Positions 796 through 19,926 of a stretch of 28,946 bases of DNA are shown here, one piece after another (within the stretch, counting starts at the first letter, position 1; every line of letters begins with the position of its first letter). The stretch comes from a virus (Duplodnaviria > Heunggongvirae > Uroviricota > Caudoviricetes). The translations under genes were made by a program, and so were the position numbers. Location: IMG/VR virus record IMGVR_UViG_2617270968_000004; one strand, 5' to 3'. The notes under the pieces are model-generated. The model was given only the letters and a program-made list of their open reading frames with translations. It was not told the origin of the DNA and made no database searches.

Positions 796-1213
796 CGTAA
801 GTAAAATCAGCCACCCACAGCTGGTCAGGTCGTTCTGCCACGAACTGACGGTTTACGCGGTCGCCTGCGGCAACGGCTTTCCGGCTGATGGTCGTACGGA
901 CCTTTTTACCCCGGAGAACACCGGCAAGTCCCATAACCGCCATGAGACGTGCCACAGTGCATCTGGCCACTCTGATACCTTCCCGTAACAACTGACGCCA
1001 GACTTTACGCACACCGTATACCTTGTGATTTTCATCGTATACGCGCTGTATCTCTTTCTTCAGCCAGTCATCGCGCTGCGCACGGGCACTGCGTTTATCC
1101 GGATGATGTCGCTGTTGCTGACAGTGGTAATACGTTGACGGGGCAATATGCAGTTCGCTGCATAGCGGTCCGACCCCGTACAGCTTACGCAGCTTATCCA
1201 GCAGTGGCATCAT
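796..1213 (-). pseudogene. IS3-family transposase OrfB, N-terminal part truncated by intron insertion
   Basis: [32 protein letters not shown]...WVADFTY matches IS629 OrfB up to FTY, then diverges into intron sequence (track ORF 731..1213). Confidence 0.75.
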
Positions 1214-1536
1214 TTTTTCCAGAGGCGGTCGAACTCCGCCTTCGCAAAATAAGCGGAAGCCTGGCGAAGGATATCGTTACTGCGGCGCAGTTCACGATTT
1301 TCACGTTCCAGCTCTTTCAGACGCTGACGTTCAGCGGTGGTGAGCCCTCCATCACCGCCCCCGGTATCCCGCTCATGCTGGCGAACCCAGACACGCAGAG
1401 TCTCCGGCGTACAGCCAATCTTTGGAGCAATGGAACAAATTGTCGCCCATTGTGAGTCATATTCGCTCTGACTTTCCAGAACCATACGGACTGCCCGTTG
1501 ACGGACTTCGGGGGAAAAACGAGTATTTTTAGTCAT
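1210..1536 (-). CDS. IS3-family transposase OrfA (IS629-type)
   Basis: 108-aa [25 protein letters not shown]... with helix-turn-helix and leucine-zipper-like C-terminus, characteristic of IS629/IS1203 OrfA. Confidence 0.85.
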
Positions 1537-8050: not shown

Positions 8051-11000
8051 CTATATTTTTCCGCCTACGCCTTTAAACTTCTCAATAAACGAGACGATTT
8101 TCTGGAAAACTGCCTGTTTTTTCGTTTTATATTGCGGATTTAACGGACTAAGTTTTGGTAATGTTTCGTTTAATTCTGTGCCATTTTCGGTGGCATATTC
8201 GCGTTTTAAAGACGTGCGAATATAGCGTTTTGCTGCATCTTCATTGAGATTTTCTTCTTTTATCAATGCTTCTGCTTCACGTTGCTGTTCGCGTTGAGCA
8301 AACGTAAAGAATGCGTCAATGATGCTGGCTTTGTCCGGTAAATCATCCAGGTTCGTTTGCTGAATAAAATCGACCACCAGGCCCTCTTTAGCACGGTTTC
8401 CCAGGCTTGAACGAATTAAGCGTTTGACCTCTTCGATCATTTCGCCCTTGCCTTTATTTTGTCTGTTGTGTTCGAAAATCAGTCCAAGGATATAATCCAG
8501 GTTTATTTCCTGAGACTTCAGCAAATCGACCTCAAAAACTACGTCATCCCAGTCAGTGGTTGATTTCTCTTTTTTCTCAGCTTCTTTCTCACGGCGCTGC
8601 CAGTCGCGAATATCGTTATAGGCAGAACGATAATCCTGAATCTTGCGATCAGCAGGGAGACGAATTGTTTGCAATTCAGCGAACTTTTCATCATCCACAT
8701 AATGTTCTGCTTTGAATTTTTCTACCGCAACAGGATCGCTAAGATCGATTTGTTGCAGGGCTTTTAGCGTGGCAAATTCATCATAGTTTTGCAGGATGTT
8801 CTCGGCACGCAGGTATTCGCCAAACAGTTTAACGAAGTCTTTCTTCTCTTTTTCACTTTCAATACTGGTAGGGTCAGGGAACCGTTGTTCCAGTTCTGAA
8901 ACTACTGTCATGAAGCCGCGTTTAGCTTCACCTGTAGCAGCATCAGTAAAGCCTTCCATATACTCTGTATAACTCTTTTCTAACACCACATTTTTGGTGT
9001 TTTTGTCACCAAACAGCGTTATGGCATCAATAGTTGAGCGTTCCAGATCCCGGAAAGTGACGATATTACCGAAGGTTTTAGTGGCGTCATAAATGCGGTT
9101 GGTGCGGGAAAATGCCTGCATCAGGCCGTGATAACGTAAGTTTTTATCGACGAATAGCGTGTTCAATGTTGGAGCATCGAAGCCGGTTAAGAACATCCCC
9201 ACGACAATTAGCAGATCGATATCCTGATTTTTAACCCGCTGGGCTAAATCACGATAGTAGTTCTGAAAACCGTTACTGTCGGTGCTAAAGTTAGTTTTAA
9301 AATGGCTGTTATATTCACGAATTGCAGCGTCCAGAAACTCTTTAGCACTGCTGTCCATTGCGCTGGTATCAAAAGTTTCATCGGAAATTTCACCAATGGC
9401 ATTTTGTTCTTCATTGGCGGCAAAGGAGAAGATTGTCGCAATACGCAGCGGTTTATAGGTAGCCGATTTATTAGCGGCTTCTTCTTGTAACCGTTTAAAC
9501 GTCGCATAATAGGCTTTCGCGGCATCCACGCTGCTCACTGCCAACATAGCATTAAAACCTTTTGAGCCAGGGAAGGTACGGTGGGTTTTCTGGCGGAAAT
9601 TATTCAGAATATATTGCGTGATTTCCTGAATACGCATGGGATGAAGAAACGCCTGCTGATTTTCAGCCGCACTCAGTTTTTTCTCGTCAGTTTCTGTCTC
9701 TAAAGACTTAAACTGTGGCCGCACATCGTTGTAGTCCACCTTGAATTTGAGCACTTTTTCGTCACGAATCGCATCGGTAATTACATACGAATGCAATTCA
9801 CGACCAAATACGCTGGCGGTTGTTTCTGAGCCTAAGGCGTTTTCCGGGAAAATAGGGGTGCCGGTAAAACCAAACTGATAATAGCGTTTGAATTTCTTCT
9901 TCAGGTTTTTCTGCGCTTCTCCAAACTGGCTGCGGTGGCATTCATCAAATATAAACACCACTTGCTGATTATATACAGGCAGATCGCTTTCTGCTTTCAT
10001 CAGGTTATTGAGTTTCTGAATAGTAGTGACGATAATTTTGTTATCGTCCTTATCCAGATTTCGTTTAAGGCCTGCGGTATTTTCCGAGCCGTTGACGCTG
10101 TCTGGCGAAAAACGCTGATATTCCTTCATGGTCTGGTAATCGAGGTCTTTCCTGTCGACCACAAAGAAGACTTTATCAATAAAGTCCAGCTCTGTTGCCA
10201 GACGCGCGGCTTTAAAGCTGGTGAGGGTTTTACCAGAACCGGTAGTGTGCCAGATATACCCACCGCTTTCCGGTTTTGACCAGTTCTTCGCTGTAAAGGA
10301 ACTCTTAATTTTCCACAGAATGCGCTCGGTGGCGGCAATCTGGTACGGTCGCATTACCAGTAGTGTCTGACTGCTGTCAAAAACGCTGTAGTTCACCAGA
10401 ACATTAAGCAGAGTATGTTTCTGGAAAAAGGTGGCGGTAAAGTCTTTGAGGTCTTTAATCAGCGTATTGTCTGATTTCGCCCAGTTCATGGTGAAGTCAA
10501 AACTGTTTTTATCGCGCTTTGTCGTGTTGGCAAAATAACGGGTATCAGTGCCGTTGGAAATGACGAACAGCTGCAGATACTTAAACAGGGAATTTTCGCT
10601 GTTAAAACTCTCTTTACTGTAACGATGTATCTGGTTGAAAGCCTCACGAATCGCCACGCCGCGTTTTTTCAGTTCGATTTGTACCAGCGGTAAGCCATTA
10701 ACCAGGATAGTTACGTCATAACGGTTAGCGTGAGAACCCGCCTGTTCAAACTGCTGGATAATCTGCACCTTATTGCGCATGAGATTCTTTTTATCTATCA
10801 AATAGATGTTCTCAAGACGCTCGTCATCAAAAATAAAGTCGCAAATATAGTCGATATGGATTTTACGGGTCTTATCCAGAATGCCATCGCTCGGGTTATC
10901 CAGATACTGCTCCGTGAAACGCCGCCACTCGCTGTCATTAAACACCACACCATTGAGGTTCTGAAGCTGTTCCCGAACATTGGCCAGCATCGCCGACTGT

Positions 11001-11167
11001 GATTTTACGGATATAAATTCATAGCCCTGATTCCGTAGGTCCTGTATCAGTTCGCGTTCCAGGTCCGATTCGCTCTGGTAGCTGTCGCCTGTTGGCTCAG
11101 CTTTGATGTACTTATCAAGAACGATAAAGTTATTGGATTCAGCAATGGTGTGTGTCTGATGAGTCAT
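8051..11167 (-). CDS. hsdR: Type I restriction enzyme R subunit (HsdR), type IC EcoR124-like
   Basis: 1038 aa; N-terminal PD-ExK nuclease motif ([17 protein letters not shown]), helicase motifs TGSGKT and DECH; size and N-terminus match the EcoR124 family as I recall it. Confidence 0.92.
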
Positions 11168-11288: not shown

Positions 11289-12503
11289 TTAATTACTGAC
11301 AGTTTCAGGTTTCGGGAAACTGAACAGTAAATCACGATAGTACTCGTATTGTTTCTGGCGCAACTCGATTTCACGCGGAAGACCTTCGGTGATGGAGTTA
11401 GTCAGTGTGTCGAATTTGTCGAGTATTTCGACAATTCGTTGTTGTTCATTGATGTTAGGAACCGGAATTTTAAATGAAAATAATTTTTTACTGTCAATAG
11501 AAGCTACGGACCCTCCTGTCTTTTTCGCTGCTCGCAGAATATCACTCCCCCTAGACCCAATCATATGATAAATATATTTAACCAAGATGTTTTCATGAGG
11601 AATGACTGCTTTCATATCTTGATTGAGCGTAGCAGGTACTTTTATTAATGCACTTGGTAATACTTTATCCAATATGCTTGAGCGAACAACGATTGCAATC
11701 GAGTTTGCTGGAATCAGTTTTGTTGACGATTGTAGAACAGCCTCCTCAGTTATATAGTCTTCCGAAGAGTCTACAAGTGTTCGGCCCATATCTTTCGGGG
11801 AAATCCATGGAATGCTTCCATTTTCCCAAAATTCAATTTTATTTTTTGATGGTGTCCCTCCCCCATACCATTTTCCGATCTCTCCCAAAGTCTTCCACTC
11901 AACCTCACCCTCTTTAAAACTCAACAACTGGTCGCGATAGTAGTTGTACTGTTTTTTACGCATGTTAAGCTCAGCGGTAAGCTCAGCGGTAAGTGCAGTA
12001 AATTTATCCAGAATCCGAACGATTTCAGACTGGATGGCAAGGGATTTTTCCGGATTATCCGGGCAGGGGATTGGGATTTTTTTTTGAGAATAATTACTAA
12101 TCCATTGGCGTTTATGGTCTCCCTCTGCGAATTCACTTGGTAATGTATTGAGCCAATAGTAAACATATTTCAGTAAGGTTTTATTATCATCACATGATGT
12201 AACCATTTTCATGGCCGATGATTTTGCCTTAAAGTCAAAATCCACCCATTTATTAGCGGTGGTGAAATCATCAAAAATTATTACAGGTGCCTTTGATGCC
12301 TGATAAATACCATGAGTCTCATTTGTGTATCCAAGAATAAATGTTTTTCCGGCAGTAAGAACCGGTATGGTATATGTGTCGTGATAATCTTTTGCTTTTA
12401 CCAAATACTTTGTTGGCTGTTCATATTTGGTTATTTCCCCCAATGGCAACCACTCAACTTCAACCCCATCCAGCAATTTTTCCAGATAACTCATCTCGCT
12501 CAT
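11289..12503 (-). CDS. hsdS: Type I restriction-modification specificity subunit (HsdS)
   Basis: 404 aa with two target-recognition domains separated by conserved regions ...[26 protein letters not shown] and ...[19 protein letters not shown]; 4-bp overlap with hsdM. Confidence 0.9.
11967..11990 (-). repeat. Tandem 12-bp repeat (2 copies) encoding TAEL-TAEL in the HsdS central conserved region
   Basis: Plus-strand AAGCTCAGCGGT x2; in type IC systems the copy number of this repeat sets the spacer length of the recognition site. Confidence 0.8.
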
Positions 12504-14062
12504 TTCTGCACCTCGCAGCCTTCAATTTCAGCCACAATCGCATCAATATCTTTGCGCAACTGGTCGATTTTGCTGACCGTGGTTTTCAGCTCAGCATTCA
12601 GCTCAGCAATATCGATAATTTCGCGGTTATCTTTCGCTTCCACATAGCTGCTCACCGACAGGTTATAGTCATTAGCAACAACGGTCTCAAACGCGACAGA
12701 TTTCGCCAGATGAGCAACATCTTCCTTGCTGGCAAATACCTGCATAATCTGTTCGATATGGGCATCGGTCAGGATATTGTTGTTAGTCTCTTTTTTGAAC
12801 AGTTCGCTGGCGTCAATAAACTGAACGTTGGTATCCGTTTTATGTTTGGACAGAACCAGAATGTTTACTGCAATGGTGGTGCCAAAGAACAGGTTCGGTG
12901 CCAGTGAAATTACGGTTTCGACATAGTTATTGTCAATCAGATACTGACGGATTTTCTGCTCCGCGCCGCCACGGTAAAAAATACCCGGGAAGCAAACAAT
13001 CGCAGCACGACCTTTGGCAGAAAGATAGTTCAGCGCATGTAATACAAACGCAAAGTCAGCTTTGGATTTGGGGGCCAGAACGCCAGCCGGGGCAAAACGT
13101 TCATCGTTAATCAGCGTCGGGTCATCGCTGCCAATCCATTTCACCGAATACGGCGGGTTAGAAACGATGGCATCAAACGGTTTTTCATCTCTGAAGTGTG
13201 GCTCAGTCAGTGTATTACCCAGCTTGATATCAAACTTGTCGTAGTTGATGTTGTGCAAAAACATGTTCATACGTGCCAGGTTATAGGTTGTATGGTTGAT
13301 TTCCTGACCAAAAAAGCCTTCTTCGATGATATGGTCATCAAACTGTTTTTTAGCCTGCAACAACAGCGAACCGGATCCTGCTGCCGGGTCGTAGATTTTG
13401 TTAACGTGGGTCTGCCCGTGCATAGCCAGTTGTGCAATCAGCTTAGAGACGTGTTGCGGTGTAAAGAACTCGCCGCCTGACTTACCGGCATTCGCCGCAT
13501 AGTTAGAAATCAGGAACTCATAGGCGTCACCGAACAGGTCAATCTGATGTTCGTTGAAGTCACCAAGTTTTAACCCTTCAACCCCTTTCAGAACCGCAGC
13601 CAGGCGGGCATTTTTATCTTTAACGGTGTTACCCAGGCGGTTACTGGTAGTATCGAAATCAGCAAACAAACCTTTGATGTCAGCTTCTGAAGGATAACCG
13701 TAAGCAGAACTTTCGATAGCAACGAAGATGCTGTTTAAATCTGCATTCAGTCTGTCATTAGTATTTGCTTTCGCAGCTACGTTGCAGAAAAGCTGACTGG
13801 GGTAGATGAAGTAGCCTTTAGTTTTGATGGCATCGTCTTTAATGTCATCAGTAATTACGCTGTCATCCAGTTTCGCATAACAGATACTGTCATCACCGGC
13901 TTCAATATAACTGGAAAAATTTTCGCTGATAAAACGGTAGAAAAGTGCGCCCAGAACGTATTGCTTAAAATCCCATCCATCGACCGAACCCCTGACATCG
14001 TTAGCAATTTGCCAGATTTGACGATGAAGCTCTGCACGTTGTTGAATACTTGTCATTTTCAT
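12500..14062 (-). CDS. hsdM: Type I restriction-modification N6-adenine DNA methyltransferase subunit (HsdM)
   Basis: 520 aa; AdoMet-binding [10 protein letters not shown] and catalytic NPPY motifs. Confidence 0.92.
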
Positions 14063-16183: not shown

Positions 16184-16766
16184 ATGTTACTTAACTGGCA
16201 GGGACGCCACTTCATGGAAATAAATCACTCACGAATAACATCGTACGAGATTGCGGATTACATGATCCGCACTAAATCTCTTCTATCAGCGAAAGAACTC
16301 GCAGCAATTCTTGAAAAGGAATACCCGCATCTGGATGTCGATAAGCGCGATGTTTATCTGCGCTTACGAACGAAAGCGTGAAAATAACTGGTCAGTGCTG
16401 GAAGCAGCTGAATTCATCGAGGCGCATGGCGGAAAAGTGCCGCCCCTGATGCTGGAGCAAATCAAAGCCGATCTGCGTGCTCCTAAGACCAATACCGATG
16501 ATGAGGAAAGGCAAACAGCCGTCGGTGGCCCTTCTCTTGAAGATCTGGACAAAGTTGCGCGAGAACGGGCCGCCAACCGCCGCGCCGATGCCGCATTGTG
16601 GATTGAGCAGCGTAGGGAAGAAATCGCCGATATCGTTGATACAGGCGGTTATGGAGATGTTGATACTGAAGGTGTATCAAACGACCCATGGCTGGAACAA
16701 GACCTGGACGAAGACGAGGAGGAAGACGAAGAAGTTACCCGCAAGCTATACGGGGATGATGATTAA
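16184..16766 (+). pseudogene. Candidate late gene (small-terminase or late-activator position) split across two frames
   Basis: ORF 16184..16381 (frame 2) and ORF 16311..16766 (frame 3, TTG-started in the track, acidic C-terminus [11 protein letters not shown]). A single +1 shift near 16375 would join them into about 190 aa; the stop overlaps the pacB start (TAATG). Confidence 0.3.
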
Positions 16767-18270: not shown

Positions 18271-18395
18271 TGTTTTTTAACTACCGATGTTACATTGAGC
18301 CTGACCTCTTGCGCCTTGAGGCATTTTCGGTTTATGCTTATCAGGCACCTCATTAAAACGGGTGCCGGGATTGGCCTCCCGCTTAAGTCTAAGGC

Positions 18396-18425
18396 GATAC
18401 AGACGCCGCTCGCGTCTTTTTTTTG
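18396..18425 (+). terminator. Rho-independent terminator
   Basis: Stem AGACGC/GCGTCT with 5-nt loop followed by T8 (18418..18425). Confidence 0.6.
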
Positions 18426-18589
18426 TATCGGCGTACACGCACACCTCTACAATGGTGGGCTGTATGGGGCTACCTTCGGGTAGGCTGGTTACCTTGGACG
18501 CCAGTAAGGCCAACTCCGTACAGTCCACCGCCAGCAAGATTGGTCTCTTCTGCGGTGGTTACATACCAACGTCTAAGGAGGCTGCCAAT

Positions 18590-18811
18590 ATGGCTACTAT
18601 CCCTATCCCAACTCATCCTGAATTTATCTGGCGCTTTTACTCCTGCCAAAAACGTCACTATCACTTCGTTATTGCACCGACAGAAGATGAGGCCCGCTCT
18701 CAGCTTCCTGACGCCCCATGTATTTTCTCTGCCCGTTTTTCCACTGATTCACGCAATTCTCTCAGTTACTGGTGCCTCCCTGTTAACGCTTCTGCTCAGG
18801 AGGGACTATGA
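18590..18811 (+). CDS. icd: Icd-like small protein (73 aa) translationally coupled to the antirepressor gene
   Basis: ATG 18590 preceded by AAGGAGG; 73 aa, the P1 Icd length as I recall it; stop overlaps the ant start (ATGA). Confidence 0.5.
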   Translation: MATIPIPTHPEFIWRFYSCQKRHYHFVIAPTEDEARSQLPDAPCIFSARFSTDSRNSLSYWCLPVNASAQEGL

Positions 18812-19926
18812 GAACGTCATTAGTCACCCGTGAAGAGATGATCGAGGCAATTGAACAGCACACTGCCTGTATCAGTACCAGGGATATACCAGGCGTTATT
18901 GCCAACTACTTCATGATCACCAAACAACTTTACCGGAGAAAGGACAAGAACGCGGTTCACCGTATCCTGTTGTCTGATATCCGCGAATACCTGCTCGAAC
19001 AGGGTCATCTGAATTACGCAACCGCCGCAGCCGAAGCACGCAAGGAGGCACACAGAATGAAAGCAACTAACGTTAAATCAGAAAAAATTCATGCACCTTC
19101 AGTTCAAGAATCGGAGCTGGTGGTTGTTCAGAATCAGTCTGATGAAATTCCCGTTCTGGAATGGCAGGGAGTGCGTGTAGTGACAACCGAGACTCTTGCT
19201 AGAGGGTATGGGACAGAAACAATCCGTATTCGCCAAAATCATCATGAGAACAAAGTACGCTTTGTTGAAGGGAAGCACTTTTTCAAAGTTGAAGGAGAAT
19301 CATTGCGCGAGTTGAAGCACAGAGTAGCTTTAAACTACTCTGTAAAAATTGCTCGCAATGTTCGCTCACTCACCCTCTGGACAGAACGCGGCGCAGCCCG
19401 CCACGCTAAAATGCTCGAAACCGATCAGGCATGGGCATTCTTTGAAAAACTGGAAGACAGCTACTTCCGACAAAAAGAACAGCAACCGATCGCAATCCCC
19501 CAGACGCTTCCTGAAGCCCTACGCCTGGCTGCCGAACTGGCTGAACAAAAGCAACTTCTGGAACAGAAAGCCCACCAGCTAAATCAGCAGCTGGTGGCCG
19601 CCGCTCCTAAAGTCGATTTTGCCGACCGGGTATCAGTAGCTAAAGGGATCCTGATTGGGAATTTTGCAAAGGTTGTTGGACTTAAACAAAACGCGCTGTT
19701 TGTCTGGTTACGGGAGAACGGCATCCTGATAGCGTCCGGTGGACGTAAAAATGTGCCGTTCCAGCAGTACATCAACGCGGGGTATTTCACGGTGAAAGAA
19801 GTGGTGCTGGATGATGAAGATGGCTACCAGATACGGTTGACGCCTCAATTAACGGGTAAAGGCCAGCAGTGGTTGACGCGTAAACTGCTCGATGCTGGCT
19901 TGTTAAAACCGGTGGCGGCTGAATAA
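18808..19926 (+). CDS. ant: Antirepressor Ant1-like (ORF6N plus KilAC/Ant domains), with in-frame internal Ant2-like start at 19057
   Basis: 372 aa; central VLEWQGVRVVTTETLARGYG... and C-terminal VDFADRVSVAKG...FVWLRENGIL antirepressor-type regions; internal in-frame ATG 19057 has its own AAGGAGG, giving a 290-aa product. Confidence 0.6.
   Translation: MRTSLVTREEMIEAIEQHTACISTRDIPGVIANYFMITKQLYRRKDKNAVHRILLSDIREYLLEQGHLNYATAAAEARKEAHRMKATNVKSEKIHAPSVQESELVVVQNQSDEIPVLEWQGVRVVTTETLARGYGTETIRIRQNHHENKVRFVEGKHFFKVEGESLRELKHRVALNYSVKIARNVRSLTLWTERGAARHAKMLETDQAWAFFEKLEDSYFRQKEQQPIAIPQTLPEALRLAAELAEQKQLLEQKAHQLNQQLVAAAPKVDFADRVSVAKGILIGNFAKVVGLKQNALFVWLRENGILIASGGRKNVPFQQYINAGYFTVKEVVLDDEDGYQIRLTPQLTGKGQQWLTRKLLDAGLLKPVAAE

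Follow-up and report, generated by a model that had tools for sequence, protein, structure and literature searches.

A two-copy TAEL repeat in hsdS of an EcoR124I-type restriction-modification operon on a P1-like phage-plasmid

The window analysed here, by which we mean the whole 28,946-nucleotide stretch of DNA of the IMG/VR virus record IMGVR_UViG_2617270968_000004 (Caudoviricetes), carries a type I restriction-modification (hsd) operon. Its genes are read from the minus strand in the order hsdM-hsdS-hsdR (14062-12500, 12503-11289 and 11167-8051), all three open reading frames (ORFs) are intact, and the part of hsdS lying between the regions for its two target recognition domains (TRDs) contains a perfect 12-bp tandem repeat. 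The features are as follows.

8051..11167, minus strand: hsdR, 1038 aa; full-length match to EcoR124 HsdR structures (2W00_A, 2309.5 bits); Pfam EcoR124_C.
11289..12503, minus strand: hsdS, 404 aa; 403 of 404 residues identical to EcoR124I HsdS (7BST_A, P10485); Pfam Methylase_S in two stretches.
11397..11873, minus strand: variable region of the C-terminal TRD, boundaries approximate; RTCG (CGAY) half-site in EcoR124I.
11874..12091, minus strand: central conserved region of hsdS, first coiled-coil helix; 95% identity (megablast) to positions 16113-16334 of L002, an intact P1-like relative.
11966..11993, minus strand: full periodic tract, 28 nt, 2.3 copies; homology for misalignment or unequal exchange.
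11967..11990, minus strand: perfect 12-bp repeat in two copies, ACCGCTGAGCTT on the coding strand; TAEL-TAEL, HsdS residues 172-179; spacer-length determinant.
12092..12449, minus strand: variable region of the N-terminal TRD, boundaries approximate; no megablast match to L002; GAA half-site in EcoR124I.
12500..14062, minus strand: hsdM, 520 aa; 518 of 520 residues identical to the EcoR124 M chain 7BST_D; 4-nt overlap with hsdS.

Type IC systems are recognized by HsdM and HsdR subunits that are highly similar to the prototypes, usually more than about 70% similar within the family, and here HsdM is almost identical to its EcoR124 counterpart whilst HsdR aligns with 2W00_A over residues 1-1038. 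The expected Pfam domains were detected in HsdM (N6_Mtase/HsdM_N), HsdR (HSDR_N/ResIII/EcoR124_C) and HsdS (Methylase_S), and the gene order on one strand, with hsdM and hsdS overlapping, is likewise that of type IC. HsdS has two variable TRDs and a central region with a tandem tetra-amino-acid repeat (TAEL in two copies), type IC central regions being known to carry TAEL, LEAT, SEAL or TSEL repeats (PMC10030836). Both TRDs are those of EcoR124 and exactly two 12-bp copies are present. HsdS and HsdM together depart from their EcoR124 counterparts at only three residues, and by its sequence the operon is EcoR124I itself; the almost identical complex has been solved by cryo-EM (7BST and related entries). 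The assignment to the EcoR124 type IC family made in an earlier note on this DNA, for which unrelated TRDs would have been fatal, is thus borne out by all three subunits, and the coordinates, strand, unit sequence and peptide that it gave for the repeat are all exact by sequence, frame and Tandem Repeats Finder.

A megablast comparison with the L002 allele, which has different TRDs, delimited the domains of HsdS, positions 11874..12091 being the only internal part of the gene to align. The N-terminal TRD region is identical to that of EcoR124I HsdS, and the half-sites of the two EcoR124I TRDs follow PMC3874165 (Table 2). The sole difference from P10485, the UniProt entry for the EcoR124I/EcoR124II specificity subunit, and from 7BST_A, glutamine rather than histidine at residue 258 (codon at window 11730-11732), lies in the C-terminal TRD. 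Q258 was found in all natural copies and relatives in the protein collection, whereas H258 occurs solely in the reference entry P10485 and the PDB chains, and an exact look-up found no contig carrying the H258 sequence; H258 in P10485 is possibly an error or a clone-specific change of the reference. Two mechanically called ORFs overlapping hsdS (11648-11917 on the plus strand and 11921-12166 on the minus strand) were considered as genes and set aside, no supporting evidence having been seen. The N-terminus of HsdS also resembles the end of its own central conserved region (11289-12503 against 12500-12530, at the hsdM end and hsdS start), a likeness in keeping with the proposal in PMC3510504 that a duplicated half-subunit gave rise to HsdS.

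On the plus strand the repeat reads as two copies of AAGCTCAGCGGT at window positions 11967-11990 (AAGCTCAGCGGTAAGCTCAGCGGT), which on the coding strand form the codons ACC GCT GAG CTT twice, in frame within the 404-aa ORF. Because the CTT codon before the two units and the A after them keep the 12-bp register, the periodic tract extends to 28 nt, and Tandem Repeats Finder accordingly reported period 12, 2.3 copies and 100% matches at 11966-11993. Two perfect 12x2 tandems were observed in the window, this one and another in hsdM, against 0.001 expected per window in sequences simulated by a first-order Markov model with the window's dinucleotide transitions. Measured from the ILDKF anchor to the RxKQY anchor, the central helix that includes the repeat is 13 residues long and its distal counterpart 17, a shortfall that one more TAEL would make good; these lengths fit the remark in a review of type I enzymes that three TAEL copies seem optimal (PMC3874165).

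The repeat acts through the architecture of HsdS, in which an antiparallel coiled coil keeps the two TRDs apart. The number of TAEL copies sets the length of the first helix, hence the distance and rotation between the TRDs, and through these the non-specific gap of the bipartite target. Altered repeat number or flexibility is said to give promiscuous mutants. In the published relation, two copies of the 12-bp TAEL unit specify GAAN6RTCG (EcoR124I) and three copies GAAN7RTCG (EcoR124II), the copy number changing by unequal crossing-over (PMC3874165, PMC7383803). Hybrids with altered copy number had their spacer shifted as predicted (PMC3874165), and the relation between copy number and spacer is described again in PMC10030836 and, for the LEAT repeats of NgoAV, in PMC6789123. 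Given this relation, and because the present gene combines two copies with EcoR124 TRDs, GAAN6RTCG is its predicted target; were the 28-nt tract to gain a further 12-bp unit, by unequal exchange or replication slippage, the EcoR124II specificity GAAN7RTCG would result. The mechanism proposed in the earlier note (gain or loss of a repeat by unequal crossover, N6 versus N7) matches PMC3874165 and PMC7383803, and its N6 form for two copies is upheld, as a prediction, by the literature together with the EcoR124 TRDs. Counts of the two targets in the window (GAAN6RTCG 8 versus 7.6 expected; GAAN7RTCG 6 versus 8.0 expected) are at chance level, so that site avoidance, which we also considered, is uninformative either way.

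We therefore read the repeat as the TAEL spacer determinant of an EcoR124I system on a P1-like phage-plasmid, with GAAN6RTCG as the predicted target and a specificity that could be switched, though rarely, and give this reading a probability of about 0.93. The repeat's sequence and frame, the near-identity of the subunits, the intact ORFs and the polymorphism of the family described below come from our own comparisons, and the relation between copy number and spacer from the literature. That the present element can switch is inferred, as is the expectation that switching of this allele would be a rare event rather than high-frequency phase variation; we judge it rare because the tract holds two units only and every public copy of the allele has two.

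Among known systems, EcoR124I (plasmid R124; P10485; 7BST and 7BTO-7BTR) shares with the present one all three subunits at the identities given above, the gene order, two TAEL copies and the predicted target GAAN6RTCG, and differs in its location, the present operon lying beside phd/doc on a P1-like (IncY-type) phage-plasmid and not on R124, and in having H258 rather than Q258. EcoR124II (EcoR124/3) has the same TRDs and repeat unit but three TAEL copies and the target GAAN7RTCG, and would be the expected product of a one-unit gain here. EcoDXXI and EcoprrI, both with three TAEL copies (PMC3874165), and other Escherichia coli type IC hsdS alleles agree with the present hsdS in the central conserved region and in the 12-bp unit, which is identical, whilst their TRDs are different and copy number across these alleles is 1, 2, 3, 5 or 8. 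In NgoAV of Neisseria gonorrhoeae, the copy number of LEAT in HsdS sets GACN6TGC versus GACN7TGC (PMC6789123); here too a tetra-amino-acid repeat count in the central helix changes the spacer, but the repeat peptide and organism are different, and a frameshift truncating HsdS is a further determinant of specificity.

Every natural copy of the same TRD pair that we recovered carries two repeat units. A screen of 5,426 complete E. coli genomes gave seven records with hsdS coverage of 80% or more. Six of them, from three ST540 chromosomes and from plasmids CP103563, LR882053 and JCANKZ010000002, match at 100% and have two copies, whilst the seventh reaches only 85.9% identity; PLSDB contributed two records covering hsdS, both at 100%. 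In a search of 5.8 billion protein clusters, every match at 98% identity or more was 404 aa long with two repeat units, one of them (P0010) reading TTEL instead of TAEL in the second unit. The exact HsdS protein of the window was found on 108 contigs across 228 index blocks of the assembly collection, always at 404 aa, whilst exact versions with one, three or four TAEL copies, in Q258 and H258 backgrounds, were absent from approximately 15 billion proteins. The N7 (EcoR124II) form of this TRD pair is likewise absent from public assemblies, which collapse minor variants, and within those assemblies the present allele displays none of the heterogeneity among near-identical isolates that marks a contingency locus.

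The wider type IC family is more variable. The conserved central region was found in 1,277 of the 5,426 complete E. coli genomes (~24%), and in a sample of 60 evenly spaced records from 1368 matching E. coli records, with copies counted from the span of the subject against that of the query, two TAEL copies were found in 31 (~52%) and three in 24 (40%), with one record each at 1, 5 and 8 copies and two yielding no count. Translation established copy numbers of 8 (L003), 5 (L004), 1 (L005) and 3 (L006), and the confirmed alleles share the identical 12-bp unit wherever their DNA was read. The one-copy allele, a perfect TAEL, is on chromosome CP019961. The 8-copy allele, with eight perfect TAEL units, lies on chromosome CP050031, where an IS1 between hsdM and hsdS removes the normal start, and the 5-copy allele, also perfect, lies on chromosome CP075462 behind an hsdM annotated as a pseudogene; both are thus in damaged systems. 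Among the best 60 rows of the conserved-region search, the 5-copy allele occurred in at least 15 records, mostly pig-associated.

Comparison of 120 homologues uncovered two sibling pairs with 100% identical flanks, one of two copies versus one (P0059 and P0084) and one of two copies versus three, the first of the three being a degenerate TAAL (P0074 and P0103). Since these alleles differ in copy number alone, the switch does occur in nature within the type IC family. The earlier note's description of the repeat as a switch point thus holds as a capacity, seen in R124 in the laboratory and in natural siblings of other TRD pairs, but finds no echo in the present allele, for which public sequences contain no heterogeneity; its proposed comparison of copy number across relatives, once run, gave the same division, the present TRD pair being two-copy only and the type IC family variable. 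Three further homologues of 407 aa (P0011-P0013), with two TAEL copies, have the N-terminal TRD of EcoR124I in each half, P0012 being present on 4 contigs of up to 91 kb. They are natural equivalents of EcoR124I-NT, the symmetric engineered form, and their expected target is a palindromic GAA...TTC site.

The second perfect tandem of the window served as an internal control. It consists of two copies of TGCTGAGCTGAA on the coding (minus) strand of hsdM at window 12585-12608, coding for AELN-AELK (HsdM residues 486-493), and shares the core GCTGAGCT with the hsdS unit; it sits in the C-terminal helical domain of HsdM. No length variation was found in 59 of 59 repeat-spanning rows of a spread sample from 1,337 E. 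coli records. Because the hsdM tandem is constant in length, variation in hsdS is not the generic behaviour of a 12x2 tandem, and length variation is tolerated or selected in hsdS, not in hsdM.

One alternative is that the repeat is a high-frequency contingency locus, in which frequent interconversion of two and three copies (N6 and N7) within a clonal population carrying the phage-plasmid would give mixed specificities as a hedge against phage attack. Laboratory observations of alternate expression of R124 and R124/3 (Glover et al. 1983, as cited in PMC3874165) point in that direction, as do the natural siblings that differ in copy number alone and a family range spanning 1 to 8 copies. A tract of two 12-bp units is, however, very short for slippage to be frequent, the allele is two-copy in every public instance (in assemblies, which collapse low-level variants), and, unless restriction is alleviated, a switch of specificity is costly because the new sites in the chromosome are still unmodified; we regard frequent interconversion as distinctly unlikely. 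A broader conjecture, which we also hold to be unlikely, is that copy number is more plastic than the N6/N7 pair implies, so that the phage-plasmid EcoR124I may hold minor bet-hedging subpopulations of three copies or more with shifted or broadened specificity, or that 5-8 units mark decay after inactivation.

The genetic context of the operon is that of a P1-like phage-plasmid. The best relatives of the window are IncY-type P1-like phage-plasmids, not plasmid R124, and they carry phd/doc, pdcA, DUF968, lpa, two terminase genes (which we take to be pacA/pacB by P1 nomenclature), ant, a c1 repressor inactivator, a tyrosine recombinase and ref. The hsd operon adjoins phd/doc in these elements, and between relatives solely the TRD-coding parts of hsdS differ. 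Rfam searches identified isrK (18345-18422) and a P1-type C4 antisense RNA (18448-18535) on the plus strand (window 18345-18535), just upstream of the antirepressor gene ant (18808-19926); this order of isrK, C4 and ant is the immI arrangement of P1/P7.

Two deletions distinguish the window from intact P1-like relatives. Compared with L002 and L007, it is without 1,134 bp at ~16351-16366, a loss that fuses lpa (5' part) and pacA (3' part) with a 16-nt overlap of the alignments. Late-gene activation and DNA packaging have probably been lost in the phage-plasmid. One public contig (L013, GCA_030002215.1) has the same lpa-pacA junction by gene pattern, and the context nearest to that of the window came from a P1-like contig sharing this deletion; one retrieved locus matches the window at 99.8% over 17 kb. 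At the junction ~1588-1590, beside an IS3-family remnant (796-1590) that contains an ALIL frameshift pseudoknot (1139-1255, minus strand), the window lacks approximately 3.9 kb of tail genes that L002 has, and this loss is likely to be an IS-mediated deletion. The phage part may be defective, whilst the restriction operon is intact.

Identical hsdS with phd/doc also occurs as an IS-flanked fragment in F-type plasmids and an ST540 chromosome. In L008, L011 and L014-L016 (the ST540 chromosome, plasmids LR882053 and CP103563, and others), a phd/doc-hsdMSR block flanked by IS1/IS5 adjoins S-4TM/SMODS-type genes and ccdAB, and the 89-kb F-type plasmid NZ_JCANKZ010000002, with identical hsdS, has only a phd/doc-hsd fragment. 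Evidently the phd/doc-hsdMSR module is mobile between replicons and takes part of the P1-like backbone along.

Decay of the element also bears on a second alternative, that the repeat is a fixed piece of coiled coil whose copy number is without consequence, the system, or at least restriction, being inactive. The deletions relative to intact relatives (3' lpa and 5' pacA; the tail-gene block) and the location of the 5- and 8-copy alleles in damaged systems elsewhere (hsdM pseudogene; IS1 insertion) would accord with such inactivity. We nevertheless find it very improbable, as hsdM, hsdS and hsdR each run to full length, their products nearly the same as those of EcoR124I, which are biochemically active, and the module is kept intact in several replicon contexts. 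A chance duplication or assembly artefact without meaning, which has nothing but the small size of the repeat in its favour, has negligible probability and is already refuted by the chance expectation of 0.001 per window and by the recurrence of the identical tract in assemblies made independently and in the reference sequence from the 1980s.

The repeat as spacer determinant of EcoR124I is an already known feature, the founding example of its kind, and its identification here brings no new biology; the repeat and its spacer effect in EcoR124 and EcoR124/3 were worked out in the 1980s. The survey makes modest additions, namely that the N7 form of the TRD pair was not found in public collections, that two and three copies are approximately evenly represented in the E. 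coli family, that alleles of 1, 5 and 8 copies are rare, and that the hsdM repeat is invariant. Ultimately, the finding gives the restriction-modification system of this phage-plasmid a precise predicted specificity (GAAN6RTCG), of use for predicting barriers to DNA transfer and for reading methylomes.
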